Counted from the stretch's first letter, positions 4,428-28,731 are shown. The stretch is 64,000 nucleotides of DNA from Oscillospiraceae bacterium (GCA_015063985.1 SVTC01000011.1:6613-70612); one strand, 5' to 3'. Program-made: numbers and translations. Notes: generated by a model from the sequence alone, not told the origin.

Positions 4428-4856
4428 ATGGCACTGCTTAGAAGAAAAGAAAGAGAATATGCCTTTATGATGGTATTCGAGGCTTTGTTCCACGAGGGCG
4501 AGGACGTATCCGAGCTTTTCCGGAACATCCTTGAAAACACCGATGACCCCGAGGTCAAGGAAAACGAATACATAAAAACCGTATTCTTCGGCGTAGCGGA
4601 CAAGAAGGAGGAGCTTAACGGCATAATCTCCTCGCTCAGCCCCACAAGAAAGCTTTCAAGGATCTCCAAGGTCAGCCTTGCCCTTCTGCAGCTGGCGCTT
4701 TACGAGATCTACCATATGGAAAGCATCGGAGAAAGCGTTTCCATAAACGAGGCGGTAGAGCTTGCAAAGGTCTACGACGATGACAAGGCCCCCTCCTTTA
4801 TCAACGGATTATTGGGTAACGCCGTCAGAGAGAAAAACGGCGAAGCAAAAAAATGA
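4428..4856 (+). CDS. nusB: Transcription antitermination factor NusB
   Basis: A 142-aa protein with the NusB-like start RRKEREYAFMMVFEALF and the C-terminal motif APSFINGLLG. The nusB-xseA-xseB context is typical of Firmicutes. Confidence 0.85.
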   Translation: MALLRRKEREYAFMMVFEALFHEGEDVSELFRNILENTDDPEVKENEYIKTVFFGVADKKEELNGIISSLSPTRKLSRISKVSLALLQLALYEIYHMESIGESVSINEAVELAKVYDDDKAPSFINGLLGNAVREKNGEAKK

Positions 4857-7267: not shown

Positions 7268-7304
7268 GATCCCCGACAGCATAAGCTGTCGGGGATTTCA
7301 TTTT
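7268..7304. terminator. Hairpin between convergent xseB and the 1882-aa gene
   Basis: The stem gatccccgacagc/gctgtcggggat has an ataa loop and a T-rich tail on the plus strand. It sits exactly between the two convergent stop codons. Confidence 0.55.
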
Positions 7305-10300
7305 AAAATGCATTAAAGATCAAGGTAATCACTCTCTTTTGCTCGTCGTATACGTAGGAATAACTTCCCTTAAGACGAAGAGTCTTACTGAGATTATAGT
7401 ACTTTATGATCTCTCCTATACGTTTTTTGGTGACCAAAGCTTCAAAGGTATCCTTGAAGACCCCATCGTTTGCAAAGCTGAGCTGAACGTAAAGCTTTGA
7501 CGCGCTTATACGCTTGCAAACGATATCACGGACCGCTTCAAAGGAGAATTCTTCAAAATACAGACCGTTTCTCACAAAATAGTTGCATTTTGTGGCAGTA
7601 CATTTAGGCAAGGGAAGCTCGTCCTCGGGGATGTGGTCGGGCAATGCGGTAATGTACTTATCGGTGACGCAGAACAGTGCGTAGCTTATTCTGTCGGACA
7701 CGTTTTTCTTTTTATCCGTATTTGAATGGTCGCCCCAGGTGGTATCAAGGTGATAGTATTCACCCTCCAGCTTGACTACGTTCCAGGCGTGGGTATCACT
7801 TGTCACGTATACGCAGGAGATTCCCAAAAGGTTCAGCAAATACTGAGTAGCCTTTGCATATCCCGCACAAACTGCTTTTTTATCTGCAAATACTCCCCAG
7901 ATGCTGCGCAGATCGTCGGGCTCTGTGACCTTGTACTCCCGCTTCTCCTGCTTTTCCAAGCTTATGGTATCGTAATCCACCAGCTTAATTATATTCTCAT
8001 AAACTCTGAGCGTGACCTCGTAGTCACTCATGGTGCTGTCAACGGAGCTTAAGAAGGGCTTTATCGCCTTGTCAATAACCGCGTTGCGCTTATCCGCCTC
8101 TTCTCGGGTCATACAGTACTTGAATTCCAGTGCCTTAACAAGGCCCGTGGCGACATTGAGACGAACCGAACAGCCCTGATTGTACCAGAATATCTCGGGA
8201 TGATCGTTGGTAACGTAATGAACGGCTCTGAACACTCTCTCCTTGGGAAGCTCCGCCGGCAAGGGCTCGATACAGGTCTTGAAGCTTGTCAGTGCATCAA
8301 GAATAGCATCGTAAAGCTTTTTTTCAACCTCGTCCAACAGAGAATAGCAGTATCTTTCGGGCTCTCCGGCAATTCTCTTGGCGGGGCCCTTTAAAGAGGA
8401 GGTGTCCTCGATGGGCTCCTTTCTCTTTTTGGGTACGGGCTTGGGCAAGGGTGTGGTTTCGGCAGGCACGGTATAGCTCACGTTACCGCAATACTCCGGC
8501 TCCAAAGGAAGCTTCGGATTCATAAAGGGAGTGGGCTTTGTGATGACCGTTCCCAAGCTGAAGCCGTAATTTGCCTTGTATCTCAAGAAGCCTCTGCCGT
8601 ATTCATCGTTTCTGAAGGCGGTTATCAGCTCTCTTCGCTTTGCCGCTGCGGGCTCGTTTATGAGGTAAGCGTACTGGATCTCCGCCCACTTTGCCATTCC
8701 CTCATATACCTCAAGATAAAGCTTCTTTCCGTAAGTCTTTTTAATCGCCTTATCGTTAAAGTTGAGATATTGCCAGATATGGGTAAGCTCGTGGCATACG
8801 GTGAGAGCCGCCGCCATTCTCGGTGCCGAATTCTCTACCATAAGCGTATAGCCGCTTTTATCCTTTATGGCAACGCCCAGCACTCTGCCGTCCGTCTTGG
8901 GCGACGGGATAAACGCCTTACCCAGCTTTTTGTTAAGCGTGGCGGTGTTTACCGTACTGACCTTAATACCCACGTCAATACGAATGCCGAAAAAGGCCTC
9001 CATATTTCTTTTTACGTCTTCAAAAAGCTGCCTGAACTCGTCAACTGTCTTTATGGCGCTTCTTGAGCAGCACAAGCATCTGTCTCTTCCGTCTCCAAGA
9101 GTCTCGTATTCAACTCCGTAGATCTCGCAGCCGCAGAAATCGCAATAGCGTACGTCGGGCTTTCCGGGTCTGTAGCTTGCTTCCACTGCGGCAGCTATAT
9201 CTCCAGATTCTCTTACCTGTCTGAGGCTTGAGGAATCCATTCCCAAGCGGCAAAGATATTCGAGGGTAGCGGGCGCATCAACGTCCTCCGGCTCGAAGCT
9301 TCCGCCGTACAAGAGGTAATAACGCTTCTCGTAGGGCTTGCGCTTGAACATCTCCTCTTCATCCTCGGAGTCGGACTCTTGCTCTGCCTCAAAAGGCTTC
9401 TCGTTGGGGAGCAAGGGCTCATCGGCGTGAGCTTCCTCGGGCTTCGGCTCCTCGGGCTTTGGCTCCTCGGGCTTTGGCTCCTCGGGCTTAGGTCCCTCAG
9501 GCTCGGGCTCCTCGGGCTTGGGTTCCTCGGGCTTGGGCTCCTCAGGCTTAGGCTCCTCGGGCTTGGGCTCTTCGGGCTTGGGCTCCTCGGGCTTGGGCTC
9601 CTCGGGCTTCGGCTCCTCAGGCTTGGGCTCCTCGGGTTTGGGCTCCTCGGGCTTGGGCTCCTCGGGCTTAGATTTCTTTTTAAAGATCGAAGCAAAGAAT
9701 TCCTTTATCCTCTGCCACAGACTCTTCTTATCCTTCTTATCCTTCTTCTTATCCTTCTTCTTAGTCTTCTTTTTATCTTTTTCTTCCTTTTCGGGCTCTT
9801 CCCCGTCCTCGGGCAGGGGCTCGAATTCTATGGGAGGCAGAGGCTCGGGCTTTGGAGCAAGGCTCTCCTCCAGGGTATCGTTATGCCAGGAAATATAATC
9901 GCAGACGATCTTCATTATCCTCTCCAGATTTCTTTCCACGGCAACGGTCAGACCCAGATCGAGCTGGCTATCCTCGATAAAGTAAATGCAGTTTTTCTTC
10001 AGCTCCTCGGACTCCGACTCCAGCGAGTAGGTAAGTGGATGGTCTTCCTTTCCCTTAACACCGCAAACCGCACTGATATAGTGGGAATTTTCGGCAAAAA
10101 GGGTACGGAACACCTCGTTGAACAACAAGGTCATTGTGTAGCATACCGAATCCGTAAGGCTGCCCGACAGCTCGGGAAGCTCCACGCAAAGCACCTCTTT
10201 GTTTCTGTAAACTCTCTGAGGTATGGGGCTCTCCTCACTGAAGATAACTCTCTTGGCTTTGGCAAAATCGTTGTAGCGATCCATTCTGAAATAACCGGGA

Positions 10301-12951
10301 GTATCTACGCTGATATCGCAGAACAGCTTCCTTATCGTCATTTCACCTATGGTCTGCACCGCACCCGCACAATCCTGCGCCTTTGATGCACCGATGGTAT
10401 ACCTTCTCAGCTGTCTGTAGCAGGGACGGGAGTTGATATGATCAGCCGCACGGCGAACAAGCACCTGACCCTTAGCGGTAAGATTGGTCATCTGGTAATA
10501 CTTGCCGCCAAAAGTAAAGAACTGTCCGGGCAAAAGCTTTTGATATATATGTCCGCAAAGCTCGCTGCCGAGATAATCTCTGTCGCCCTTTTCGTCCTCG
10601 CAAACGTAGCCCGCACTCTTAAGCTCCTTGGTGCATACGCGGATGAACGCCTCGTCGTCGATGAGCAGAGTAACCTCCGCCCTTCCGTTATTGAGGTTGA
10701 AGCGCTCTCCCTCCTTGATAACGGACGCCGATACCTTTTTGCCCTCGAGACAAAGAGTCCTTCCCTGACATTTTGCTACCGCCTCCCTGTAATTCTCGGG
10801 AAGTGTAAGCACCTCGTCAAGAGAAGCAAAATATTTGTATATTTCAAACCAGAGCTGTGATTTGATGTCGTAGACCTCTATTCCCAGCAGCTCAAGATCC
10901 TTTTTGATCTGCTCGGAATCCGTCTGGTGACGGCAGATGGCAAGCAAGGCACCCAGAACCGTGTTTCTCTCCGTTCTGGTGTGATCTGCCACAATGTAGG
11001 GTATCGCCTTTGCGTCGGCAGTAAATACTCTATCGTTTGCCGCCATATAATCCTTCAGAAGATAATCGCCGCCGATAACGTTGACAAATCCCTGAGAGGT
11101 AGCTCTCGTCGAGAAATCCCTGAGGATCTCAAACATATTAAAGCTCTCATCCTCTACGGTGATATAGGCGTTCTTCTGCTTTGTTGCACTCCACATTCCG
11201 TCGGTGCAGGAGAAGTGATCGTCCATAGCCTCCTGAGAGGTGGGCAATCCGGCATATTTTGTAAGCTCGTAGTAATACTGCTTTGCTATCCAGCGCATAT
11301 CCTTCACGGGGAATGCCTCGCCGCCGTACCATTTGGTGTGGCTGACCTGGTTTTTCAGCGCCGCAAAGCTCAATTCGGTGCCGATTCCCAGATATCTGGA
11401 AACGTTGGGAACAAGACGGTGGTGCAGATGCTCCTCGCCGTTTTCCCAGCACATATAACTGCAGGTACCCTTGTGCTTATCGGTTGCAAAGACCTCGGTA
11501 ATGTCAGTCATCAGGATGTGGCTCATGGCGTCCACCAGTCCGTCGCTGTTTTTGTCGCAAAGACAAAATACCGTTTTCTTGTCTTCCTCGTCCTCCTTGA
11601 TCTTCTTCACAAGAAGGTTCAAGCCTATCTGAGCCGTGCTTACAAGCTTAGTGGGCTCAATTACCACACAGAAGCTTACCTTTTTTATAAAGTCGGAGTT
11701 GGCGTTTCTCAGCTTGTGGTCAAGCACCTGAGATCTGGTTACTATACCGATATCAAGATCCTTTTCCTTGTCCCCGAGAACGCCGATCCTCCACATAAAC
11801 GGAAGCCCCGTAACGGACTCGATACCCTTCTCCAGCCAGGAGATGATCTCCTCCTCCACAGAGTGGCGTCCCAGCACGACCAAAACCTTTGAATGGGCAA
11901 GAAGCGCCTTGTTCATAGGATAGAAGGCATAGGGTATGAGATCGTTATAAAAGGGGTTGTTGAAGAGCACGCTCCTTCCGTTGCAAAGCTCGTTGGAGGC
12001 ATTGATGTAGTTTCTGTCCAGCTCCACTCCCTTGCGGTTGAGCTTATCGTAGAACAATGCGAAGTTCACCGTTGACTGATCGGAGCTGTTGCCCAGCTCC
12101 TTGATAAGATCTCCCACGGTCAGCTCTCCGGAAAAAGAGTTATCTACAGTGGTATTCTCGCTTAACAGTCTGTCGGAGAAAAGATTGCGCAGGAACTTTC
12201 TTATCAGAGAATAGTTTACTGTCTTGTAGGCATCCTCGTCCTCTCCGATTATATCCACCGTATATTCCCTTTGGGTGGCACCGTCCAGGAAGAAATACAA
12301 TTCTCCGATGATGATAACACCGAATACCGGATAAAAAACACTTTCCAGCAGTCCGTTATAGAACAAATAGCGGCTGATGATCATAAGACCAACGCCCATC
12401 ACTACGGAGGTCCAGTAAAAAACCTTCAAAAAGCTTCTTGCCTGGGCATAGCTGTCCTTCAGGCACCAAACCGATTTCTGGGAAAAGAAGCCGTAAAACT
12501 CCTTGGATATCCTGTCAAAGATAAAGGTTCCCGGAGCTATCCTCTTCTTCATTATTCTCAAAGCTATCTTTTTGATTATGATATATATTCCCAGCAATGC
12601 CGCATTGGCAAGATAGAACACCCAGAACTTAAGATCCAATCCCGCTATCACAGACCTTATAAGATCTGCAAGCCAATTGAATGCCGAAGCCAAAAAGCCG
12701 GGCATCCACGAGAAGGAGGCAGGAGCCGCTATCCATCCGCTGAGAGAATTAAGAAGCCACATTATCAAAGAGCAGACAAAGCCGTTGATCCATGCCGCAA
12801 TGGGAATATAGATCAAGGCCACTACCACCGTCAGGGGCTGTCTGGCTCTGTCGGTCTTGTCAAGATTTGCCTTGTGGTTCTTTCTGCACAACCATATAAA
12901 GGGAAGAGAGATCAATAAAAGCTTTAAAAGCATTATTAAAAAATCAATCAT
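7303..12951 (-). CDS. 1882-aa polytopic membrane protein with Lys-rich/PEEPK linker, zinc ribbon, HExxH zincin-like module and transglutaminase-like cysteine-peptidase core
   Basis: This is one uninterrupted ORF. About six hydrophobic helices lie in aa 1-230, and no motif is recognised in aa 230-1040. A KKTKKKDKKKDKKDKK stretch and about 15 PEEPK units follow (DNA 9436-9669). Next come CDFCGC...CLCC (DNA about 9063-9150) and HELTH (8779-8793) with EGMAKWAE downstream. The C-terminal core is C-H-D: AVCAGYA (Cys codon 7867-7869), THAWN (His 7789-7791) and HLDTTWGD (Asp 7744-7746). The start overlaps the upstream stop by 8 nt. Confidence 0.85.
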   Translation of the reverse strand: MIDFLIMLLKLLLISLPFIWLCRKNHKANLDKTDRARQPLTVVVALIYIPIAAWINGFVCSLIMWLLNSLSGWIAAPASFSWMPGFLASAFNWLADLIRSVIAGLDLKFWVFYLANAALLGIYIIIKKIALRIMKKRIAPGTFIFDRISKEFYGFFSQKSVWCLKDSYAQARSFLKVFYWTSVVMGVGLMIISRYLFYNGLLESVFYPVFGVIIIGELYFFLDGATQREYTVDIIGEDEDAYKTVNYSLIRKFLRNLFSDRLLSENTTVDNSFSGELTVGDLIKELGNSSDQSTVNFALFYDKLNRKGVELDRNYINASNELCNGRSVLFNNPFYNDLIPYAFYPMNKALLAHSKVLVVLGRHSVEEEIISWLEKGIESVTGLPFMWRIGVLGDKEKDLDIGIVTRSQVLDHKLRNANSDFIKKVSFCVVIEPTKLVSTAQIGLNLLVKKIKEDEEDKKTVFCLCDKNSDGLVDAMSHILMTDITEVFATDKHKGTCSYMCWENGEEHLHHRLVPNVSRYLGIGTELSFAALKNQVSHTKWYGGEAFPVKDMRWIAKQYYYELTKYAGLPTSQEAMDDHFSCTDGMWSATKQKNAYITVEDESFNMFEILRDFSTRATSQGFVNVIGGDYLLKDYMAANDRVFTADAKAIPYIVADHTRTERNTVLGALLAICRHQTDSEQIKKDLELLGIEVYDIKSQLWFEIYKYFASLDEVLTLPENYREAVAKCQGRTLCLEGKKVSASVIKEGERFNLNNGRAEVTLLIDDEAFIRVCTKELKSAGYVCEDEKGDRDYLGSELCGHIYQKLLPGQFFTFGGKYYQMTNLTAKGQVLVRRAADHINSRPCYRQLRRYTIGASKAQDCAGAVQTIGEMTIRKLFCDISVDTPGYFRMDRYNDFAKAKRVIFSEESPIPQRVYRNKEVLCVELPELSGSLTDSVCYTMTLLFNEVFRTLFAENSHYISAVCGVKGKEDHPLTYSLESESEELKKNCIYFIEDSQLDLGLTVAVERNLERIMKIVCDYISWHNDTLEESLAPKPEPLPPIEFEPLPEDGEEPEKEEKDKKKTKKKDKKKDKKDKKSLWQRIKEFFASIFKKKSKPEEPKPEEPKPEEPKPEEPKPEEPKPEEPKPEEPKPEEPKPEEPKPEEPKPEEPEPEGPKPEEPKPEEPKPEEPKPEEAHADEPLLPNEKPFEAEQESDSEDEEEMFKRKPYEKRYYLLYGGSFEPEDVDAPATLEYLCRLGMDSSSLRQVRESGDIAAAVEASYRPGKPDVRYCDFCGCEIYGVEYETLGDGRDRCLCCSRSAIKTVDEFRQLFEDVKRNMEAFFGIRIDVGIKVSTVNTATLNKKLGKAFIPSPKTDGRVLGVAIKDKSGYTLMVENSAPRMAAALTVCHELTHIWQYLNFNDKAIKKTYGKKLYLEVYEGMAKWAEIQYAYLINEPAAAKRRELITAFRNDEYGRGFLRYKANYGFSLGTVITKPTPFMNPKLPLEPEYCGNVSYTVPAETTPLPKPVPKKRKEPIEDTSSLKGPAKRIAGEPERYCYSLLDEVEKKLYDAILDALTSFKTCIEPLPAELPKERVFRAVHYVTNDHPEIFWYNQGCSVRLNVATGLVKALEFKYCMTREEADKRNAVIDKAIKPFLSSVDSTMSDYEVTLRVYENIIKLVDYDTISLEKQEKREYKVTEPDDLRSIWGVFADKKAVCAGYAKATQYLLNLLGISCVYVTSDTHAWNVVKLEGEYYHLDTTWGDHSNTDKKKNVSDRISYALFCVTDKYITALPDHIPEDELPLPKCTATKCNYFVRNGLYFEEFSFEAVRDIVCKRISASKLYVQLSFANDGVFKDTFEALVTKKRIGEIIKYYNLSKTLRLKGSYSYVYDEQKRVITLIFNAF
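9436..9669 (-). repeat. 15-bp in-frame tandem repeat encoding (PEEPK)n, about 15 units
   Basis: The plus strand reads cttgggctcctcggg-like units back to back. Unit-to-unit differences are mostly third-position synonymous (AAG/AAA; CCC/CCA/CCG/CCT). One variant pair encodes PEEPEPEGPK. Confidence 0.95.
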
Positions 12952-14974
12952 AAAGCTCCTCCCTTGTCAATTCAATAGCTTCAATATAATCTATAGGAAG
13001 CTTGATGGCATTACCCTTGTAAAGATACTCCGTCATGCCCGGCTTTGCCACCTCGTTTATCCCAAAGCTATATCTGCGATTTTGGGTAAAGTCGTACAAA
13101 AACGGCTCGGCATCCGGAAGCTTGCCCTTACGAAGCTTAATGCTCTTGTAGAAAACGTTTTGAGTTTTATATATTTGCGCGCTGATATAATGCTCGTGCT
13201 TTTTAAGTATCCCCAATCTTTCGTTGCGGTCGTGCTCGCATGCATTGATAACGGAATGCTCCCTCATCACGTTGCAGGTGGAGCTGAGGTAATTTCCAAA
13301 GGATTCAAGATATCCCTTCACTCCGGAAATTATACCGCCGATAACGTAATTGAAATGCTTAAAGCTATCCACGAGCCTCTTTTTAAACAGCCGCAAGGCA
13401 ATATACCCCGCACCCAAGAATACCAGAAGCGCTCCGGCGGTAAGACATATATTAGTCATTACCGCGGCAACCGAGCCGGTGTTGGTGAAAAGCAAGGGCA
13501 AAAAGCCTATAAAATAAGCCGCCAATGCCACAGATCCGATCACAACGGTCTTCTTCCTGGTCATTCGCTTTGATATCATCCTGCGAATGCGCTTATCCGC
13601 CTCCTCGACCTGCTCTCTGCTCTCCTTACCGTCGAAAAGCCCCGGCTCGGAAAGCTTGACCGCCTTTTCCTCCTCCTCAAGGAGTCTGATGCTGACGTCC
13701 TCCAGCTGATACTCGTTCAAAGCACCTGCTCTGTCGTCGTCAATAAAGCTCTTGCTTCTCAAGGTAACCGTGGTAGCGGTCTTTACGGCTCTTTTGGGCT
13801 CGCGAAGATACTTCACCAGCTCCTTACGGATACGCTGATACTGATCGTCCCAGAAGCGCTGCTCGTCCTTGGGGCAGTTTTTGGACATTCCTATGCCCTT
13901 GTAGGAGCAGTAAAGCTCCTTGGTATCGAATTCACTGTCCACCTCGACGGGTATATACTCATCGGAGATAAACAGCTCCTCCACCGTTTTACGGCTTAAT
14001 GCCTCCTTCTTAAGCTGAGCTATTCTTGACTGCGCTCCCTTGACGTTTCTCAGGGTAGCATAGAGCTTGGCAAGGTAGCCGTAGCAAAAATCAGCCATTC
14101 TTTCCTTATGCAGCTTAAGTGCAAGTCTGTATACCCTATCCTGTCTGAAGCAGTCGTCGGGCTGCTCGTTCACGCAAAGAATAAGCACAAGACTCAAAAA
14201 CTCAAACCAATCGCTCTCTACACGCTCTCCCTTTACGTAAGTAACGTCACTCAACACAAAGCGAAGCTTGTCAGAATAATAGTTTTCTTGGACAAAACGG
14301 CTGTATTCGTGCTCTTCGCCGCTGTTCCAAGCGTTTTTGCAGGCTCTGATGTCATCCACACAGATCCTTTCCGCGAAGGCAATAAGCTCTGCGGGCTTTC
14401 TTTTCAGCTCGCCCTCACAGCAAAAATGCTTTTTAAAGAACAGACTTTTTTCAACCGCCTGCCTCTCAAGCTCAAGCTCAAGAGGATCTACGCCCTTTTC
14501 CTTAAGACCCTCAAAATATCCCGGATCGTCAATATCTCCCAAGGATGCATATTCCTCGGAAAGATCCACCAGCTCGGTGGAGGGAGTCCCCGAAAGCCAA
14601 AGAGAGAGCTTTGCCAGAGGATTGTCCAGAGATGCCTCCCTGGCCATCCTCTTGGCCTCGCGGTATTGAAGCACGTCCTCCCCGTTTGCCAAAACGGGCA
14701 TAGAGCTGTCCGTTTTGACAAAATCAAAGGGGTTCTGTTGTGAAAGCAGCTCGGAAGAAAAGATGGTTGCATCAGCTATAGCAACTGCGCGCCATTTAGG
14801 CTTGTCAGCTATTATGCCCTTCAGATCGGGCAGAGCTTCATCCAAAGTATCCGCGTCCGGTCTCCAATAGCAAAAGGCATATTCCTTGCTCTTCATATAC
14901 GGTGCAAGAAACTCGCCGTAAGTTTGCTTACAGCTCTGCCCGAATGCTTCGGAGCATATAATTACCGTGAACAC
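12944..14974 (-). CDS. 676-aa hypothetical protein with two adjacent transmembrane helices (operon member)
   Basis: Long ORF on the operon strand. Hydrophobic segments VVIGSVALAAYFIGFLPLLF and VMTNICLTAGALLVFLGAGYIAL lie near aa 480-530. I recognise no catalytic motif. Its stop overlaps the start of the 1882-aa gene (ATGATTGA). Confidence 0.8.
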   Translation of the reverse strand: MFTVIICSEAFGQSCKQTYGEFLAPYMKSKEYAFCYWRPDADTLDEALPDLKGIIADKPKWRAVAIADATIFSSELLSQQNPFDFVKTDSSMPVLANGEDVLQYREAKRMAREASLDNPLAKLSLWLSGTPSTELVDLSEEYASLGDIDDPGYFEGLKEKGVDPLELELERQAVEKSLFFKKHFCCEGELKRKPAELIAFAERICVDDIRACKNAWNSGEEHEYSRFVQENYYSDKLRFVLSDVTYVKGERVESDWFEFLSLVLILCVNEQPDDCFRQDRVYRLALKLHKERMADFCYGYLAKLYATLRNVKGAQSRIAQLKKEALSRKTVEELFISDEYIPVEVDSEFDTKELYCSYKGIGMSKNCPKDEQRFWDDQYQRIRKELVKYLREPKRAVKTATTVTLRSKSFIDDDRAGALNEYQLEDVSIRLLEEEEKAVKLSEPGLFDGKESREQVEEADKRIRRMISKRMTRKKTVVIGSVALAAYFIGFLPLLFTNTGSVAAVMTNICLTAGALLVFLGAGYIALRLFKKRLVDSFKHFNYVIGGIISGVKGYLESFGNYLSSTCNVMREHSVINACEHDRNERLGILKKHEHYISAQIYKTQNVFYKSIKLRKGKLPDAEPFLYDFTQNRRYSFGINEVAKPGMTEYLYKGNAIKLPIDYIEAIELTREELYD

Positions 14975-15024: not shown

Positions 15025-18000
15025 TCACAGAGCCTGAAGATCGTGACCGTTGGGCAGAAGCTGATCGACCAAGCGCTTGATGCACTTATGGATAGCAACA
15101 AGAGCATCGTTGCTTTCGGCGGGAACACCCATAGACAGGAATTCTCCCACCTCGGCAGATCTATAGTTTTCAAGAAGCAGATTGTGCTGCTTGACCACGA
15201 TCTGTGCCATATGGATCTTAACGTCATTGGACTTCTCCTTGGCAGAGATCTGGTGCTCGATGGCGTTGATTATAGCCTCGGTCATGGAACGGATCTCGTC
15301 CACGTCCTCGGATACCATCAGAGAATTGTAATAAATGATCGGGATCTCAAATACGGAGGTCGGTCTTGCATCACTGTTGGCAAGCTCGGGGATATTGGCA
15401 TCGTGGAACATCTTCCTTCTGGAAAGACCTGCCAAAGCCTTTGCAAAGTTGGAGTTATTAAATCCGGCACGGCTTCTTCTGTCCTCCTCGCGCTGCTTCT
15501 CTGCAATGCACTTGATGGACTTAACGGCCGCACGGTCAAAGTAAAGACTGTCAAGCACCTCGTCAAACTTATCGCAGAGAGTTCCGTTACTTACGGTAAA
15601 GTTCTTGGGATTATCATGCTCGTCATAGTAACGGTATACAAGAGTTCTGTCATCGTACGCAGAGGGCTGATATCTCTGGATGGTGTTGTAGATAAAGCCG
15701 TAGAAGAACGCCTGATGGATATCCTGCATCAGATGTGTCTGATAATCCAGATCAAGCTCGGGCATAACGGAAATGGAGTTCCAGCTCTTGTCGATATGGG
15801 GAGTGATAAGAGCATTGAGCTTGCAATCGGGGCCGATGTTCTCCATATACTCCTGGTAGCTTGTGAAATAGTCGCCAACCTCAACGTTGCTGTCGATAGA
15901 GGCAATATCCACGCACTTGCTCAGCTCATCCTTGTCCATAGAGGGGCTGCAGAGCTTGGCAAGCTGAATGGGAGTCAGACCGTAAACGGAGCGGAAGAAG
16001 TGGAGCTCATACTTGGAAATGGAGGGAGCTGAGTTCTTTTCCTCGAGAAGCTTGTTGACCTGCACTCCGGAGAAGTCACAAAGCTTATCGCTGTATGCAA
16101 TGGCATTGACCTCTCTCTCCTCGTCAAAGTCGTTCTTACTGATAGAGGGAGCGGCAAGGTTCTTACCTCTGTTAAGCATCTTTACGATGTAGTTGAGGAC
16201 CTCCTCGTTCTTTCCTCTGAGAGCTCTGAAGCGATTCTTCTTTTCGTCGCTTTCGCTCTGCGCGATCTTCAGATCGCAGCTTGTTTCGTATTCAAGCTTC
16301 ATAGCCTGAAGAATATCCTTGTCGATAACGTTGTCGCAGACCTTTTCCACTGCTTCCTTGTAGGAATTGATGATGACGTCGTCGAAAATGTCAATAGCCA
16401 CCTCGGAGGAAAATTCGTCGAACATATTCATTTCGTCTATAAGGGTGTTCTCACAGATGGCCTTGAAGATATCGGCGTAAAGCTGATCGGTAGAGCCCTC
16501 TCCCTTTGCGGGATTTGCTCTCTTTGCCAAAAGCTCGAGATATTCCTTCTTACCGAAGAGATTGTATACACAGTCACCGGTCTTGTACTTGAGCTCGCCG
16601 ATTATATCGTCACGCATCTTCTCGATGGTAAACACCTTGGACTGGAATGCATTGTAGAACTTCTCGTAGGTGTCGCAGATCATATCCACGCGCTTGAGAG
16701 CGATGGAGATGATAACGGAGTTTACAAGCTTGGTATATGCATCCTTGACCTCCTCGTAGAAGGAGTTGAGCTTCTTACGGCAGAAGGCGATCTCCTCTGC
16801 GTTCTTTTCCTGCTGACCCTCGTTCTTCTTGGATGCCATCATATCGATGGAGATACACATCTGGCTGAGGTTGGTCTCGTTTCCGCCTACGCCCTTGATG
16901 TTGAATTCCTTCTGCTTTTCGGGATCCTGAGGATTGATAATAGCATTGATGGTAGAGGAAAGCTCCGCTCTTTCGGGGGGAAGGTTCTTCTTCTGAGCCT
17001 CCTTCAAATATGCACTGAGCTTGTAAAGCAGGTATCTTGCGGCGTTGGGATGCATTGCACGGTTTCCGCCGGAGAGATATGCTCCCAGTCTGTGGGGCTC
17101 AAGAGTCTTGCCGATAATATCCTCGCTCTCGAAGAGCTCCTTGATAAAGCTCTCGGTCATCTTCTTGATCTTACCGGAATGGTCGATAAATCGGCTGAGA
17201 CGGTCAACGTCGCTGAAGGCCTTTGCATACTGACCTATCATGGGGCTTACACTGTCGGCAAACTGATCCATCTTGTCCTTGTAGCTGGTCAGATCCTCCT
17301 CACTGAGAGTAAGGTTGGAGCCGATAATATTCTTCGCTCTTGTGGAGATCGCCTCAAAATATTCCTTTGCAGCCTCCTCCATGCAAGCTGTGAAGGGATC
17401 GCCGTCGTCGCCTGCAACTGCCGGCTTATTCTTCAGAAGGTCTGCCTTTCTTTCCAAAAAGTCCTTCTTCAGATCAAGAGTAAACTGATCGCTTCCGGTC
17501 TCCACGTAGCTTACGTAGCGGTCTCTGAGCTTGGGCTCGTCGTTGGACGCCATGGGATCGTTCATCCACTTGGTGTATTCCTTGTTGAACTTGTTATCGT
17601 AGATCATCCAGGATCTTTCGATGGCCTTTTCTCTCTGCTCGTCGGTCATATCCTTGGCAGAGGAAACGCCCATTATGGAGTTCTGCGCCCAATCCAATGC
17701 TATGTAGTCCCTGATCTTCTCATAGGGATAACGGATGATAGCCGCGCCTGCTCCGCCAAAACGGCATCTGCCCAGCTTTTCGGGGTTGGAGAATTCCTTT
17801 ATAACGTTATCCTCCTTGCTGTTTGCGGAGGATTTCATGGGTCCTATGGTCTGCTCGTAGATACACTGAGCCGCATAGTTCTCATACTGCTTGAGGTTGC
17901 CCATATTCTTTTGGTTGGAGTCGCTTCTCTCCAGAAGGAACAGGAAGTCGAAGGGAAGGTTGGAAAGATTCTCCATTCCGTTGCCGGAGGGAACGCTGAT

Positions 18001-18747
18001 GTGCAGATCCTTATATCTCTTCAGTCTGGGCTCGTACTCGAAGGCGTTGGATGCCTTCATCATAAAGGCGTTGATCTCCTTTATGGTGGCGTAGCCGTTT
18101 CTTCTCTGGCTCTTTCTTTCGCTGGCGGAATCGATAACGGTATCCATAACGCTGGGCATTACGATAAATCCGCGGATTATAGCGGCAGATTCGGGATAGT
18201 TGTTCTTAAGATACTGACGGATGAGCATTGCAACGGGCAGAGTGATACCGGAGCCTGTTCCGCCGGTGGAGGTGGAGGCGATGATGACCTTCACGGCTCT
18301 GTTTTTATCGGAGCCGTTTTTCATATAAAGGCTGTCGATAGCCTTGTACAAAGCGGCGATCTTGCCCTGCTTGATGGTGGCGTTAAGAGCAAGACGGCTG
18401 ATGGCTCTGACCTGACCGGCGCCCTCGCTTACGGTCTTACCGTCCAGGATCTTGTTCTCGGGGAACCACTCGTTCTTGGCAACGGTGTCGTTTCTCAGAT
18501 AAGCGGCAACGCTTCTGGAGGAGGAGGTCTGGATAGCAACGATGCTGGGGCCGTTTTCTATCCTCTCAAGGTCGTTAACGTCGGTATCCATGGTAACGAA
18601 CTGAACGTTCTCCAAGGAATCATATACACAGCGCTCTCTCACGCCCTTGATGATCCTTGATCCTATACCGCCGAGTCCGACAAACAGAGTCGCTTCCACT
18701 TTGTTGGGTTGAAGTCTTTCTTTTTTCATGTTTTGTTCCTCTTTCAT
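15025..18747 (-). CDS. 1240-aa protein with N-terminal tubulin/FtsZ-superfamily GTPase-like domain and about 900-aa helical extension
   Basis: Three motifs fit the superfamily: FVGLGGIGSRI (T1-like GxGxxG), SEGAGQVRAISR (FtsZ T3-like GAG...R) and IIASTSTGGTGSGI (core of the tubulin signature GGTGSG, DNA 18247-18264). The true start is probably the second ATG at 18729, which follows AAAGAGGAA. Confidence 0.75.
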   Translation of the reverse strand: MKEEQNMKKERLQPNKVEATLFVGLGGIGSRIIKGVRERCVYDSLENVQFVTMDTDVNDLERIENGPSIVAIQTSSSRSVAAYLRNDTVAKNEWFPENKILDGKTVSEGAGQVRAISRLALNATIKQGKIAALYKAIDSLYMKNGSDKNRAVKVIIASTSTGGTGSGITLPVAMLIRQYLKNNYPESAAIIRGFIVMPSVMDTVIDSASERKSQRRNGYATIKEINAFMMKASNAFEYEPRLKRYKDLHISVPSGNGMENLSNLPFDFLFLLERSDSNQKNMGNLKQYENYAAQCIYEQTIGPMKSSANSKEDNVIKEFSNPEKLGRCRFGGAGAAIIRYPYEKIRDYIALDWAQNSIMGVSSAKDMTDEQREKAIERSWMIYDNKFNKEYTKWMNDPMASNDEPKLRDRYVSYVETGSDQFTLDLKKDFLERKADLLKNKPAVAGDDGDPFTACMEEAAKEYFEAISTRAKNIIGSNLTLSEEDLTSYKDKMDQFADSVSPMIGQYAKAFSDVDRLSRFIDHSGKIKKMTESFIKELFESEDIIGKTLEPHRLGAYLSGGNRAMHPNAARYLLYKLSAYLKEAQKKNLPPERAELSSTINAIINPQDPEKQKEFNIKGVGGNETNLSQMCISIDMMASKKNEGQQEKNAEEIAFCRKKLNSFYEEVKDAYTKLVNSVIISIALKRVDMICDTYEKFYNAFQSKVFTIEKMRDDIIGELKYKTGDCVYNLFGKKEYLELLAKRANPAKGEGSTDQLYADIFKAICENTLIDEMNMFDEFSSEVAIDIFDDVIINSYKEAVEKVCDNVIDKDILQAMKLEYETSCDLKIAQSESDEKKNRFRALRGKNEEVLNYIVKMLNRGKNLAAPSISKNDFDEEREVNAIAYSDKLCDFSGVQVNKLLEEKNSAPSISKYELHFFRSVYGLTPIQLAKLCSPSMDKDELSKCVDIASIDSNVEVGDYFTSYQEYMENIGPDCKLNALITPHIDKSWNSISVMPELDLDYQTHLMQDIHQAFFYGFIYNTIQRYQPSAYDDRTLVYRYYDEHDNPKNFTVSNGTLCDKFDEVLDSLYFDRAAVKSIKCIAEKQREEDRRSRAGFNNSNFAKALAGLSRRKMFHDANIPELANSDARPTSVFEIPIIYYNSLMVSEDVDEIRSMTEAIINAIEHQISAKEKSNDVKIHMAQIVVKQHNLLLENYRSAEVGEFLSMGVPAESNDALVAIHKCIKRLVDQLLPNGHDLQAL

Positions 18748-18771: not shown

Positions 18772-20895
18772 TCAGATCCTGTTGATTCGAATCTTAAATT
18801 TCACTTCTGCGCCGTTTCCGTTGAAATACTTGATAACGGTCTCGTCTCCCAGTGTAAATACCTGATCGTCCGAGCCTACCGCCTCGCCGTCTATCTTAAG
18901 TCCGGATGCCACGGCAGCGCCCGTTGAAACACCGCTGACCTTTACCGTAGCCGATGAAGCGGAGCGCTTGTAGTTGGGACAGCTCTTGATGCCCGCCGCG
19001 GTAAATATGATAATGCCTACGGAATTGGTGATGCAGATCATTTCATCTATGCGCACCGCAATAAAGTGATCCGCCCAACGCCCTACAGCGGGAAGGTATT
19101 CGCAAAGCTCCACCGTATCAGGGAACACCTTATGCGTTCTCCACCAATAGATCAATGCGGCGATAAGGGCAATGGCAAGCAGGACCAGCAGGCAGATTAT
19201 TACGTATATGCCGAATCTTTCAAACCAGCTTCTGCCCTCCTTGATCTGTACGGTATGGTCGCAGGATCCGCTCCATACCTCGTTTTCCTTAATGTCGCTT
19301 ATGGATATCTTGATATCCACGCTATCGTAATCGTCAAGGATCAGCTCCTGCCCCTCAAGAGTGGGGGTTATTGCGATTATTCCGATCTCGGAGGTCTTTT
19401 CGGCCTTGAAATCGCCCATTTTAAATTTTTCTTCACTGGTAAGAGCGACCTTGATGCTTCCCAGAGAATTCCACTGCTCCTGAGTGAACTCCTTGCCGTC
19501 AAGGGTAAGCTTGAATTTTATGGGATCCTTGGGGTCCAGACCGTCGGCAAAAACGGTGTACTCCGTATCCTCCGACACCTGAAAGCCTATCTCTTTGTTC
19601 TTATATACTCTGTATTCAAGATAAGTGCTTACCGTATTGTATTCAAGATAGCTTGCAGAGGCGCTGATGGTCAGATCTCCCTCTTCAATGGTGATGGTAT
19701 CACCCGAAGCATATTGCTTTTCGTGGGTCACGCCGTTATTTGTGACCGTGGCGGTATAGGTTATATCTCCCAAAAGCTCGCTGTCGGGGACGGCGTTGAG
19801 AGTGCCCGCCTTAACGAAGCCAAACTTCAAGGTGTAGCTTCCTTCCTTAAGTCCGTCGGCGTTTTTGATGATGCTTCCTTCGTTGTCAACCAGAAATGCT
19901 TCGATCTCAACGTTCGGCTTATAGTAGATCTCCACAGTCTTTGCGTTTTTAACGTCTATTGTGTAGTCGCCCGCATCAAAATCTCCCTCAAACTTCAAAA
20001 GCTTTCCCTGAAGACTTTTGTCGTAAACGTAAGGTCTTCTGCTGTATCTTTTGTCAGCCTGTGTGGAATACATTACCTCAACGGGAGAAGCGGAGGAGGT
20101 ATACTCTGCGGACTTCGGTCCGCCGCTGATCTTGCCGATCTCAACGTTTTCGCCCTGAGCAAAGACGACCAGCTCGCTCATGGGAACGTCGAAGGAAAAC
20201 TTCTTGGTCGCCATATTAACGTCAAGCTTATGAGTGTTGAATATTCTTGTGCAGATTCCGGTGATCTTGTTAAGGATCTGGTCACTGGTCGCCGCCTTTT
20301 CGCAATATATATCCTTGCTTTCATCACCGGTGATCATAGCGGCAGAAGCACCCATGCTCAAAAACATCACCTTGACGTCTGAGCTCTTTTCTCGGAAAAA
20401 GGAGTCCGCAACCAAAAGCCCCATATCAAATTCGCCGTCGGTAAGGACAACAAGCCACTTCTCGTCGACCTGAGCGTGGGTAAGATCCTCGTAGGCCTTA
20501 CGAACGGACATAAAAGGAGTTCCCGCATTTTCGGTAATGGTATTGTGAAGTATGTCAACGTTAGCCTGAGTGGGATCGCTTCCCTTTATGGTGATCCTCG
20601 GTCCCACACAATCCTCAAGAGCCAAGTTGTCATAGGCATAATCGTTCATGTAATAGATACTCATCGTATCATTCTTGCCCAGCATTGCCGCAAAAACTTC
20701 CATTGCGTATTTTGCCTGGCACCAGGTGTCGTGATAATTTTCACCGCCGCTGGTCCACATACTGGTAGAATCATCGTATACCACGTTGATCTGACGGCTG
20801 GGCTCAGCGCTTGCCGCTTGCACGGGGAAGCAAAGACAGCTTGCCAAGGTCGCCACTGCAAGTACTATCGCACACAGCCTGAAAAGTCTTTTCAT
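18772..20895 (-). CDS. Secreted, C-terminally membrane-anchored von Willebrand factor A (vWA) domain protein
   Basis: I chose the start at 20895 (MKRLFRLCAIVLAVATLASC) because AGGAGG lies directly upstream. The signal peptide has a possible lipobox (LASC). The MIDAS motif is intact: DDSTS (20761-20775), NAGTPF and VVLTDGE. A long beta-rich region follows, then one TM helix (FGIYVIICLLVLLAIALIAALIYWW) and a tail of about 110 aa. Confidence 0.8.
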   Translation of the reverse strand: MKRLFRLCAIVLAVATLASCLCFPVQAASAEPSRQINVVYDDSTSMWTSGGENYHDTWCQAKYAMEVFAAMLGKNDTMSIYYMNDYAYDNLALEDCVGPRITIKGSDPTQANVDILHNTITENAGTPFMSVRKAYEDLTHAQVDEKWLVVLTDGEFDMGLLVADSFFREKSSDVKVMFLSMGASAAMITGDESKDIYCEKAATSDQILNKITGICTRIFNTHKLDVNMATKKFSFDVPMSELVVFAQGENVEIGKISGGPKSAEYTSSASPVEVMYSTQADKRYSRRPYVYDKSLQGKLLKFEGDFDAGDYTIDVKNAKTVEIYYKPNVEIEAFLVDNEGSIIKNADGLKEGSYTLKFGFVKAGTLNAVPDSELLGDITYTATVTNNGVTHEKQYASGDTITIEEGDLTISASASYLEYNTVSTYLEYRVYKNKEIGFQVSEDTEYTVFADGLDPKDPIKFKLTLDGKEFTQEQWNSLGSIKVALTSEEKFKMGDFKAEKTSEIGIIAITPTLEGQELILDDYDSVDIKISISDIKENEVWSGSCDHTVQIKEGRSWFERFGIYVIICLLVLLAIALIAALIYWWRTHKVFPDTVELCEYLPAVGRWADHFIAVRIDEMICITNSVGIIIFTAAGIKSCPNYKRSASSATVKVSGVSTGAAVASGLKIDGEAVGSDDQVFTLGDETVIKYFNGNGAEVKFKIRINRI

Positions 20896-20957
20896 CTTTC
20901 TCCTCCTGAAAATATACGAAAACAAAAAATCTTCGCAATTATTCATATTAATAATAT

Positions 20958-20986
20958 ATTATACATTTTCTATTAATATTTGTCAA
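20958..20986 (-). promoter_or_regulatory. Consensus SigA-type promoter of the vWA/tubulin-like operon
   Basis: The minus strand reads TTGACA (20981-20986), a 17-nt spacer, then TATAAT (20958-20963), about 60 nt upstream of the ATG at 20895. Confidence 0.7.
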
Positions 20987-26532: not shown

Positions 26533-28731
26533 TCATCTGCGACCGTCGCTTCTCTTGCGAGGCTTTATGCAGAAAATCAGGAGAATACCGGAAACTGCTG
26601 CAGCAATGAGCCAGAACATACTGCTGTCAGAGGTCTCGGGAGCGGATGCCTGGGGAATATCGGGAACGCCAAGGGGAACATCGGGATCCTCAATGACGCT
26701 CTCGGGCTCGTGAACGTTGGTTACGGTAAAGCCGTCGATAACGGTCTCATATCCCTCTACAGCAAGCTCTGTTATCGTGTAAACGATCTCTTCGCCCGCC
26801 TCGTACTTGTCAAGACCCGCAAAGGTCCACATCCAGCCGTCAGCCTCTGTTATTTCCTTGGTTTCGATCACAGTGCCGTTTGCAAGAAGATTAACGTTAA
26901 TGGATTCGGGACGGATACCGTCCTGATCGTCTTCGTCGTCCCAGATCTTGTTAACGGAGATACTGATCTTGCTGACAGTATATTTAACCTCGGGAACGGG
27001 GAAAACCTGAGGCTCGCCGTCAACTCCGTCGCTGTCAACGGGATACAAAACCGCGGAATTATTGGTAGGAACAATATATTCGCCCGTCTCTGCCTGCTTT
27101 TCGGTCAGCTGAAGCTTATAGGTAAGTGCCGCTTTTCTCACCAGAGAAACGTTTTCGCCAAAGGTCCACACAATGCGCTCGGTAGTCTTGCCGTCGCCGT
27201 AGAAATAATCAAGCCAGAAGCTGGGCTCAGTAGCTCCGGGAGCGATGAAAGCATAGGAGCTCTTTGCGGCTTCGCCGTTCTCATCGGTATATTTTGCAGT
27301 GTCGGCAGAAACACAAGTATAATCATCGCCGCCAACGTTAAGCTTGATATGATCCGCATCTTCGATAAACTCAAAGTTGCCGTTTTCGTTTTTACCGATA
27401 TAGTCCACAACAACAGAGCCGACAGAGCAGTAGTGAACGATGTCGTCGCGTATAGAGTCAAAGAAATTCTCCTGAAGAACCTCTTCGGTAGATATAAGTG
27501 TGCCGTTTTCGTCACGCCGGAAATCCCAAACAGCGGGAGCCTCGGTCTGTCCACCCAGAGTTGCCAGGTAGTTCATAAAGCTATGACCCAACTGAGCTCT
27601 GGATGTGCCCTTGTAACCCTGACCGTCGGTGATATACTCGGAATTATTCTGATAGTATGCGGTTTCACTGCAGATGGAATAGCACTTATAGCCTGCAGCC
27701 ACAAGCTCTTTATAAACCTTAACACATTCGTACTGTGCACGCTCGTAGCCAAGTGCATCATAGGGATTCGATCCGGAGCTTGCACCGTCTGCAACACCCG
27801 TAATAAAATCCTTCGCCTCGGGAGCGGGATCTACGATGCCAAGACCGTAACGGGAGCCTGCAATGCCAAGAGCTCTTAAGTCCTTATTGTTCTTGCCGTA
27901 CCATTCACTGAAGGCATAATGATCGTTCTTGTCTATGGGAAGAGTGTAAACGTACTTGTCTCCGTCGTCCTCTACCCATTTCTCCACGTCTGCAAAGAAT
28001 GCCTCGTAGCTGTCGTTATAACGGTCGGGAAGCATATACAAAGAAGTGTGGCCGCCGCGCTGAGAACGCCAGAGATAGTCTGCATAGTAGAAGTTATCTT
28101 TATTATTTGACTTAAGCTTATTTACAATGGTGGCCTGGTTGCCGTTGGCATCGTCGAAGAAGTAGGTACGGCCGGTCGCAAGCACGAATACGTACTTGTT
28201 TTCGGGCTTTGCCAAAGTCTCCTTCTCCAGCATCTTCTGCGCCTCGCACAGCTGGCTGTGAAGGTTGGTGGATCCGATGGGAAGAGTCTTCATATACGCA
28301 AACTTTTCTTCGATAAGCTGAGCATATGTGTCGGGCTTCAAAAGCGCCTCGTCGCTGTTCAGATCAAGGATTATCTCCTGGCCCTTTTCAAGGGAAATAA
28401 TACCGAGTCTTATGGTTGCTTTGCCGCTTTCCATAGAAGAGGCAAATACGTTGATCGCAGACTCAACGGTCTTTCTGTTGGCATTCATGCCGCCGCCCAG
28501 AATAAAGATCACGTCGATGTAACCTTCAGCGTCGCCGGGAACGGTAAGAGTGACGTTAGTCTGATCGTTTTTGTCAAGGCCGTCCGCAGTCTTGTCAATA
28601 CAGAAAAGGGATGAAGCCTCAGCGGGCACAGCCGCGCCATCCGCAAGGGTGGCAACCGGCACGATTCCAAGCAGGGTTGAAATCACAAGAACCATTATCC
28701 AAAAACGCCTGAATAAGTTTTCTTTTCTCAT
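26533..28731 (-). CDS. Cell-surface adhesin-like protein with vWA-like domain (degenerate MIDAS) and CnaB-type domain
   Basis: It has a signal peptide. DVIFILGGGM sits where DxSxS would be. KIWDDEDDQDGIRPESINVNLLANG...YTITELAVEGYETVIDGFTVTNVH is a CnaB repeat. The C-terminus is a hydrophobic segment plus the basic tail KPRKRSDGRR. Confidence 0.7.
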   Translation of the reverse strand: MRKENLFRRFWIMVLVISTLLGIVPVATLADGAAVPAEASSLFCIDKTADGLDKNDQTNVTLTVPGDAEGYIDVIFILGGGMNANRKTVESAINVFASSMESGKATIRLGIISLEKGQEIILDLNSDEALLKPDTYAQLIEEKFAYMKTLPIGSTNLHSQLCEAQKMLEKETLAKPENKYVFVLATGRTYFFDDANGNQATIVNKLKSNNKDNFYYADYLWRSQRGGHTSLYMLPDRYNDSYEAFFADVEKWVEDDGDKYVYTLPIDKNDHYAFSEWYGKNNKDLRALGIAGSRYGLGIVDPAPEAKDFITGVADGASSGSNPYDALGYERAQYECVKVYKELVAAGYKCYSICSETAYYQNNSEYITDGQGYKGTSRAQLGHSFMNYLATLGGQTEAPAVWDFRRDENGTLISTEEVLQENFFDSIRDDIVHYCSVGSVVVDYIGKNENGNFEFIEDADHIKLNVGGDDYTCVSADTAKYTDENGEAAKSSYAFIAPGATEPSFWLDYFYGDGKTTERIVWTFGENVSLVRKAALTYKLQLTEKQAETGEYIVPTNNSAVLYPVDSDGVDGEPQVFPVPEVKYTVSKISISVNKIWDDEDDQDGIRPESINVNLLANGTVIETKEITEADGWMWTFAGLDKYEAGEEIVYTITELAVEGYETVIDGFTVTNVHEPESVIEDPDVPLGVPDIPQASAPETSDSSMFWLIAAAVSGILLIFCIKPRKRSDGRR

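Follow-up and report, generated by a model that had tools for sequence, protein, structure and literature searches.

The window analysed here, a 64,000-nucleotide stretch of one strand from an Oscillospiraceae bacterium (GCA_015063985.1, SVTC01000011.1:6613-70612), encodes at positions 7303–12951 of its minus strand a giant polytopic membrane protein. Judged by homology and gene order, this open reading frame (ORF) is the 'B12' component of the vWA–FtsZl1 operon, a gene neighbourhood described by Makarova and Koonin (2010, Biol Direct 5:33, PMC2875224). We favour, with somewhat better than even confidence, a reading in which B12 is a subunit of a four-gene module and its tethered hydrolases would regulate a partner at the membrane. 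The observed parts of this picture are the domain composition of the protein, the conservation of its catalytic-type residues, its operon, its family membership and the modularity of the family.

The ORF is real and no assembly chimera. Homology searches returned 681 relatives, and the best 120 of these, to which our statements on full-length homologues refer, are about 1,760–2,030 amino acids long and align over their full length at 48–58% identity. An independent contig (ENA ERZ27248306) carries a B12 gene that is identical except for one PEEPK unit fewer. The ORF had been singled out by an earlier model-generated description made from the DNA alone (hereafter the sequence-only reading), and a regular-expression search of the minus-strand translation finds all the motifs quoted there; it also bears out the reported lack of a Walker A motif, with no GK[ST] anywhere in the chain.

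Within the operon, the order vWA, FtsZl1, B5 and B12 is kept in every related locus with enough upstream DNA. The locus set was obtained by scanning one genome per GTDB species: 338 genomes encode a relative of B12 and 80 loci were kept, all from Clostridia except one from Erysipelotrichales. The same four-gene order is given in Additional file 5 of the 2010 paper for Ruminococcus lactaris (RUMLAC_01529–01526) and 'Bacteroides' capillosus (BACCAP_04124–04121), with RUMLAC_01526 and BACCAP_04121 named as B12 members (PMC2875224). The second of these was recovered in our scan, in P. capillosus ATCC 29799 (locus L046), as an ORF of 1,447 amino acids with 43% identity to residues 50–1485 of the query protein, that is, the B12 of the window. 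The 2010 members share with the query the operon position after vWA, FtsZl1 and B5, the membrane anchor, a large N-terminal soluble domain (hereafter the N-domain), the zinc ribbon and the zincin. They differ in being 1,418–1,435 amino acids long and in lacking a module related to the streptococcal protein TglA, which the paper and its supplement nowhere mention; relative to them, the query has about 350 extra amino acids of transglutaminase (TG) fold and a species-specific PEEPK tether.

The operon centres on a bacterial tubulin relative. FtsZl1, two genes upstream of B12, matches Pfam Tubulin_2 at E=1e-55 and conserves the GGxG and GGTGSG loops; the 2010 paper predicted a membrane-remodelling machine nucleated by this branch of the tubulin/FtsZ superfamily (PMC2875224). 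The first protein of the operon has a conserved metal-ion-dependent adhesion site (MIDAS; DxSxS...T...D), a transmembrane segment at residues 580–598 and a cytoplasmic tail. It has no Pfam or PDB match, and its assignment to the vWA family follows from the MIDAS motif together with homology to BACCAP_04124, annotated as COG2304 in the 2010 paper (PMC2875224). With its listed start (ATG at 20946) this gene encodes 17 extra N-terminal residues for which homologues show gaps (window 20895–20946); the true start is probably M18 (MKRLFRL..., nucleotide 20895), which would give a standard lipoprotein signal. The four-gene unit looks co-transcribed, with a promoter-like site before it and a terminator-like hairpin after it.

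This context, with its tubulin/FtsZ-like GTPase and vWA protein, was missed by the sequence-only reading, which did propose translational coupling of B12 to the gene upstream. That proposal holds: the B12 ATG overlaps the B5 stop codon by 8 nucleotides (ATGATTGA), a Shine–Dalgarno sequence (GGGAGGAG) lies a few nucleotides upstream of the ATG, and an overlap of 8 nucleotides is found again in most of the related loci. Among 74 homologues, B5 is conserved in its six C-terminal residues, REELYD, and not in the roughly 50 before them. Because the REELYD codons (window 12944–12975) coincide with the B12 Shine–Dalgarno sequence and ATG, this conservation suggests that selection acts on the overlapping translation-coupling signals.

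Starting from the most conserved part of the chain, the N-domain spans 815 residues and is common to every member of the family. The GTDB scan had been seeded with HELTHIWQ and YEGMAKW and is thus unfit as a test of the zincin motif, so we searched instead with the N-domain alone against 1.84 billion cluster representatives. This search gives 577 clusters at E≤1e-3, 272 of them at E≤1e-30, and a ribbon–zincin module is present in 97 of the 150 N-domain clusters listed, at 21–56% identity to the query (median 39%). The 97 modules were therefore retrieved independently of the Cys4 and HExxH motifs, and they serve as the reference set for conservation in what follows.

The Cys4 ribbon is formed by two CxxC motifs, the only ones in the chain, at residues 1270–1273 and 1292–1295, which are 18 residues apart; the sequence-only reading had identified both halves correctly and misjudged their spacing, which is CDFCGC-x16-CLCC and not x20. 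Following the ribbon is the one HExxH of the entire protein, against about 0.035 expected from its composition, and then EGMAKWAE at residues 1417–1424, as had been read from the sequence. In the reference set H1387 is conserved in 95 of 97 modules, E1388 in all 97 and H1391 in 92; downstream, E1417 and G1418 are each kept in 94 and W1422 in 96. E1424 is variable, and the motif is thus HExxH-x25-E, a gluzincin-type arrangement. The structural model of this region, a beta-sheet followed by the HExxH helix (H173-192) and a helix bearing the glutamate (H204-225), fits a zincin; this prediction of the C-terminal part and that of the N-domain were both built from alignments of 17 sequences. The module resembles zincin (MA-clan-like) metallopeptidases of the DUF6782, BSP (PF04450), DUF6055 and SprT-like families, in which an HExxH helix also follows a beta-sheet and the glutamate sits in the next helix. 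It departs from them in its obligatory Cys4 ribbon about 95 residues upstream and in scores below their curated cut-offs, and the data assign it to no characterised MEROPS family. Among 32 family members the recurrent weak matches are to DUF6782 (12/32), BSP (8/32) and DUF6055 (6/32), and BSP and SprT-like are further sub-threshold Pfam matches of the query's zincin. The sequence-only reading had likened the arrangement to DA1-type peptidases, which at motif level also place a zinc-binding Cys module N-terminal to an HExxH...EG peptidase. We rejected that candidate: the DA1-like family PF12315 gives no Pfam match even at E≤5, and where DA1 peptidases have LIM domains, B12 has one Cys4 ribbon.

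The C-terminal module consists of a helical N-subdomain, a Cys-His-Asp core and a C-terminal alpha/beta subdomain. The transglutaminase-like core was already noticed from the motifs AVCAGYA, THAWN and HLDTTWGD, which begin at residues 1693, 1720 and 1734, and its identity is now considerably firmer. Transglut_core scores 26.2 bits against a cut-off of 23 when residues 1530–1882 are searched alone (22.7 bits in the whole protein). A family profile over residues 1206–1882 (alignment A3) matches Streptococcus pyogenes TglA (PDB 9CRN) at E=3e-36 over the whole module, with the Cys, His and Asp aligned; Foldseek matches the model, which has a predicted local distance difference test score (pLDDT) of about 85–94 in this module, to 9CRN at E=1.2e-17 with a target-normalised template-modelling score of 0.70. 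The triad is conserved in 32/32 locus-derived sequences that have the module. Fold and catalytic residues thus match TglA and TglA-like lipoproteins, which together with the NCBIfam MAG6410 transglutaminase-related lipoprotein are the closest known relatives. TglA itself is a monocistronic lipoprotein of about 410 amino acids, whereas in B12 the module forms the C-terminal end of a giant chain; we found no published function for S. pyogenes TglA or 9CRN. The sequence-only reading had made conservation of H1387, E1388, H1391 and C1695 the test of whether its motifs were fortuitous, and these residues proved near-invariant. On this pattern of conservation the hydrolase-type centres of B12 are under purifying selection.

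Across the family these modules are fused, split, lost and replaced. TG is fused to B12 in 31 of the 80 loci, absent in about 40 and encoded by a separate downstream gene in about 6; L051, grouped with these last, is split, possibly through a frameshift. Fused forms group in a single clade, that of the query, and the module is a clade-specific accessory. Separate zincin ORFs, consisting of linker, zinc ribbon and zincin with no signal peptide, occur at 4837–5961 of L084 and 13863–15251 of L073; they start in the acidic linker and overlap or abut a short B12 that has only the transmembrane segments and N-domain, and may reflect real gene fission or frameshifts in metagenome-assembled genomes. 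One family representative combines the N-domain with TG and has no zincin. Another (P0175, 1,821 amino acids) begins with a signal anchor, a Cu_amine_oxidN1 domain and a mycosin-like S8 subtilase, and continues with five transmembrane segments and the N-domain. These fusions and fissions indicate that the modules are functionally tied. One other member, in alignment A5, carries a GrpE domain; the 2010 table places a COG0576/GrpE gene (Cagg_1315) beside FtsZl1 in its Cagg_ block (PMC2875224).

The membrane domain comprises five clear transmembrane segments by hydropathy, at residues 4–22, 42–66, 108–126, 174–192 and 200–222, and a doubtful amphipathic stretch at about 75–100, close to the six helices counted in the sequence-only reading. 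Loops 23–41 and 127–173 are rich in Lys and Arg, with family-average net charges of +3.5 and +3.0, so that the positive-inside rule points to five segments in an N-out/C-in topology, and the soluble part of B12 is predicted to face the cytoplasm. The same placement had been suggested from the sequence alone, and it gains independent comparative support from the family variants. Three fused variants with an internal transmembrane segment after the zincin (L015, L034 and L037) are K-rich before it and S/T-rich after it, which favours a cytoplasmic zincin, as does the lack of signal peptides on the stand-alone zincins. P0175 has its secreted subtilase and signal anchor ahead of the five transmembrane segments, an arrangement that argues for a cytoplasmic N-domain and for N-out/C-in. 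Polar residues within the helices are invariant in a 40-sequence alignment (N116 in the third segment, P208 and E217 in the fifth), which hints at a role of the membrane domain beyond anchoring.

The topology brings with it a puzzle concerning the TG module. TglA is a lipoprotein (MKQKIKILTVIGLMTVGMSAC...), monocistronic in S. canis, with relatives that carry either a lipoprotein signal or a signal anchor, so the family normally works outside the cell; the stand-alone TG proteins of our loci likewise have an MKR or MKK start, a hydrophobic segment of about 21 amino acids and an acidic linker. In four fused variants a strong transmembrane segment lies between zincin and TG (residues 1512–1530 in L015, 1632–1650 in L034, 1626–1644 in L037 and 1480–1498 in P0157), and TG is predicted to be outside the cell there. 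The query has no hydrophobic segment at residues 1480–1530, and 116 of the 117 fused homologues of the protein set have neither a transmembrane segment nor a signal before TG. The TG module of the query is therefore predicted to be cytoplasmic, unlike its extracytoplasmic relatives, and, whichever topology is right, the predicted side of the membrane on which the module is found differs between family members.

The sequence-only reading described the 800 residues after the membrane domain as having no recognisable motif. This stretch is instead the N-domain, which defines the family. It is rich in near-invariant acidic and basic (Arg) residues, and its near-invariant motifs are PFYxD, EPS, D466...DGLVDxLSH, YLGxGxE, PxxDxxWIxxQYY, EDExxN, YLLRDYMxxN...RN, LPGQxxTxxGKYY, RRAxDxxxxRxxYRQxR and EDSxxDxG. 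Neither in the query nor in 32 divergent family members is it covered by a Pfam or NCBIfam model, and its profile finds only noise among solved structures (S100-A16 at E 0.2). The AlphaFold model is poor, with a mean pLDDT of 57.8, and its best Foldseek neighbours are the superfamily 2 helicases MrfA (6ZNP, E=7e-10, 792 columns), Hel308, MDA5 and DHX36, mixed with Rossmann-fold methyltransferases and at a query-normalised template-modelling score of about 0.15. One stretch, a strand, DKNC, a helix, a second strand and SAT, resembles helicase motifs II and III. Unlike superfamily 2 helicases of the MrfA/DUF1998 and Hel308 types, the N-domain has no Walker A and no DExH, with DKNC in the DExH place and a partly conserved G361-R362-H363 at the position of motif I, and no match to a solved structure or Pfam family at the sequence level. 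A helicase-derived domain that is no canonical nucleoside triphosphatase (NTPase) is thus a weak, model-based lead and no classification. A regular-expression search for helicase motifs I, II and III, meant to supply flanking helicases for comparison, found none among the ORFs of the loci.

Between the N-domain and the ribbon lies a disordered tether, whose length varies among homologues and which is gappy in alignments. The poly-Lys/Asp and PEEPK stretches noted from the sequence were found at residues 1064–1076 and 1096–1170; Tandem Repeats Finder reports the latter as 17 copies of a 15-nucleotide unit (nucleotides 9415–9669). After the N-domain comes a polybasic amphipathic segment (KKKTKKKDKKKDKKDKKSLWQRIKEFFASIFKKKSK, window 9670–9786, residues 1056–1094), which keeps its character and the positions of two Phe residues throughout the family and could be an in-plane helix that binds the membrane or a partner. 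The PEEPK repeats are specific to the query organism, with unrelated low-complexity linkers at the same position in other species. The array differs by exactly one unit between the window and the otherwise identical ENA contig (window 9415–9669; locus L081), which reflects either a recent length-polymorphic repeat or an assembly collapse.

Taken as a mechanism, the arrangement that we favour would work as follows. The module would comprise a lipoprotein with an extracellular vWA part and a tail in the cytoplasm, the cytoplasmic FtsZl1 GTPase, the hairpin-anchored B5 and B12. Anchored by its five helices, B12 would present to the cytoplasm, in order, the N-domain, the tether, the ribbon-capped gluzincin and, in the clade of the query, TG. 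The N-domain may serve at the membrane as the dock between B12 and a partner (FtsZl1, B5 or the vWA tail), and the long tether would let the zincin, and here TG, reach a membrane-proximal substrate. An event sensed outside by the vWA domain would then be coupled to FtsZl1 assembly or turnover through regulated cleavage or modification of a partner, or of a nearby membrane-proximal protein, by the hydrolases. The catalytic activity, the substrates and the direction of signalling in this scheme are what we infer from the sequences.

Several observations weigh against this reading. The zincin scores fall below the Pfam cut-off of 27 (DUF6055 20.1 bits, DUF6782 17.3 bits), its Foldseek neighbours are weak (MATCAP, ACE2, M32 and M61, E 0.18–3), and H1391 is R or K in a few homologues. 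Hydropathy and family comparison are the basis of the topology. Neither FtsZl1 nor vWA ends its cytoplasmic tail in a conserved motif that might point to cleavage. The extracytoplasmic relatives of TG, and the four fused variants that place it outside, make a cytoplasmic partner unlikely as its general substrate. On FtsZl1, Tubulin_2 or vWA with tubulin-like defence we found nothing beyond the 2010 paper and family surveys, with no functional literature after 2010 and no experimental study of the B12 family.

The sub-threshold scores, and the substitution of H1387 or H1391 in a few homologues, also speak for the possibility that the peptidase-like cores are non-catalytic scaffolds (pseudo-enzymes) or fortuitous motifs. 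We regard this as highly improbable, with metal-ligand and triad residues near-invariant at the median identity given above, a single HExxH where far fewer would be expected by chance, and a Cys, His and Asp that align with those of TglA. The idea that separate genes were fused into this giant ORF by assembly or annotation, an outcome that the sequence-only reading had named as refuting it, could appeal to the separate module ORFs of L073, L084, L060, L071, L075 and L077; with 117 proteins from independent assemblies carrying zincin and TG in one chain, nearly two-fifths of the species-level loci fused, and the ENA contig, its probability is practically nil. A narrower version of our own proposal would have the gluzincin cleave or trim FtsZl1, or its anchor B5, and so switch a membrane polymer upon ligand binding by vWA, with the N-domain docking or remodelling and TG recruited across the membrane from a family of extracellular enzymes. 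It draws on the eukaryotic tubulin-processing peptidases MATCAP, a gluzincin, and the vasohibins, transglutaminase-like Cys proteases, since here too both enzyme types are genetically tied to a tubulin-superfamily protein. The MATCAP fold match is not significant (E about 0.18, probability about 0.4) and serves as an analogy only. Unlike the case of the tubulin-processing peptidases, the extreme C-terminus of FtsZl1 is not conserved, for which reason we rejected it as a trimming site, and TG can be missing from family members and is external in relatives. These three points count against simple tail trimming, and we hold the narrower version to be very unlikely.

The proteins could instead form a cell-envelope machine, in which the hydrolases would act not on operon partners but on the envelope, for instance on surface proteins or on lipid-linked cell-wall precursors, which occur on either face of the membrane, while FtsZl1, B5 and the N-domain position or gate them. 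The lipoprotein or signal-anchored relatives of TglA, the four variants with TG outside, the extracellular mycosin-like S8 protease and Cu_amine_oxidN1 of one member, and the extracellular vWA partner all suit this idea, as do the names of weak zincin relatives (BSP and 'Hvo_1808 surface protein'), which are those of secreted or surface proteins. Set against it are the query and nearly all fused homologues, with no transmembrane segment or signal before TG, the stand-alone zincins with no signal peptide and the lack of a peptidoglycan-binding domain in the query protein, and we hold it to be unlikely. We think it quite unlikely that the operon is an anti-phage or conflict system, with a vWA sensor and FtsZl1 NTPase that trigger the B12 peptidases as abortive-infection effectors. 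Large multi-domain proteins with NTPase and peptidase parts are typical of conflict systems; the cassette is inherited as a unit, with none of the flanking genes of the window recurring in the 80 loci, and its effector-like C-terminal modules are swapped, lost or split. However, PADLOC-DB 2.0 has no family (0) for any of the four operon proteins, the N-domain has no match in plasmid or phage collections, N-domain identity among relatives broadly tracks taxonomy, and the window offers a housekeeping context and no defence island. Our preferred reading stays that of a membrane module regulated by tethered hydrolases, with the features in Table 1.

Table 1. Features of the B12 locus, in window coordinates, and separate TG genes of related loci, in the coordinates of each locus
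Feature	Coordinates	Strand	Remarks
Bidirectional terminator-like hairpin	7268..7297	.	Between B12 stop and convergent xseB
B12 gene	7303..12951	minus	ATG start, 1882 aa, polytopic membrane protein, last gene of operon
TglA-like transglutaminase-fold module	7306..8364	minus	aa 1530-1882
Triad Asp (D1736)	7744-7746	minus	Putative catalytic residue
Triad His (H1721)	7789-7791	minus	Putative catalytic residue
Triad Cys (C1695)	7867-7869	minus	Putative catalytic residue
Gluzincin-type metallopeptidase module	8512..9054	minus	aa ~1300-1480
E1417 in YEGMAKW	8701-8703	minus	Probable third ligand
HELTH	8779-8793	minus	aa 1387-1391, putative zinc-binding HExxH
Cys4 zinc ribbon	9061..9150	minus	C1270, C1273, C1292, C1295; conserved in 97/97
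Disordered tether	9337..9831	minus	aa 1041-1205: acidic, polybasic/amphipathic, PEEPK repeats, acidic tail
Family-defining N-domain	9832..12276	minus	aa 226-1040, alpha/beta plus beta-rich, no P-loop
N-terminal membrane domain	12286..12951	minus	aa 1-222, 5 transmembrane segments, predicted N-out/C-in
B5 gene	12944..14974	minus	676 aa, cytoplasmic protein, transmembrane hairpin aa 477-520
FtsZl1 gene	15025..18747	minus	1240 aa; Tubulin_2 GTPase domain aa 21-358, long C-terminal region
vWA-family gene	18772..20946	minus	724 aa as listed; lipoprotein-type signal (LASC), MIDAS
Promoter-like site	20958..20986	minus	Consensus sigma-70-type, TTGACA-17-TATAAT, 12/12, upstream of vWA gene
Separate TG gene, L060	14148-15362		Immediately downstream of B12
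Separate TG gene, L071	14223-15437		Immediately downstream of B12
Separate TG gene, L075	14218-15540		Immediately downstream of B12
Separate TG gene, L077	14063-15439		Immediately downstream of B12
Separate TG gene, L073	15274-16521		Immediately downstream of B12

The operon is flanked in the window by the housekeeping genes xseAB, nusB and a TsaD-family gene, with pheT, metG and recD2 farther off; none of ten flanking genes recurs beside the cassette in related loci. Elsewhere in the window, a minus-strand gene at 26533–28731 encodes a surface protein of 732 residues, in which a signal peptide, a GBS104-like tip-pilin Ig domain and a Cna_B domain are joined by a hydrophobic anchor at the C-terminus; this pilus or adhesin gene is unrelated to the vWA–FtsZl1 operon and no part of it. 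An ORF at 40108–41694 (minus), with LNT_N and CN_hydrolase domains, resembles apolipoprotein N-acyltransferase in an apparent Clostridia genome, and is mentioned here because the vWA subunit of the operon is a predicted lipoprotein.

The sequence-only reading called the pairing of two peptidase-type cores on one polytopic protein unusual. The combination is less exceptional than that. The family counts hundreds of clusters, and the zincin, zinc-finger and membrane architecture was annotated as B12, together with its operon, in the 2010 supplementary table. New here are the TglA-like fusion variant with its pattern of fusion, fission and change of compartment, the finding that the N-domain represents a large family lacking annotation, the residue-level conservation of the catalytic-type residues and the comparative support for the topology.

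The locus is a compact four-gene version of the FtsZl1 system from gut Clostridia, complete from promoter to terminator, and as such a tractable entry point. It offers as handles the catalytic-type centres E1388 and C1695, an enzyme-like N-domain and natural variants in fusion, fission and compartment. A TglA-type enzyme, normally extracytoplasmic, appears on the predicted cytoplasmic side in most fusions, a puzzling evolutionary move. Peptidases directed at the tubulin-like protein, or at its partners, would amount to a new bacterial mode of control over a cytoskeletal polymer; peptidases directed at the envelope would instead connect cell-surface processing with a relative of tubulin.

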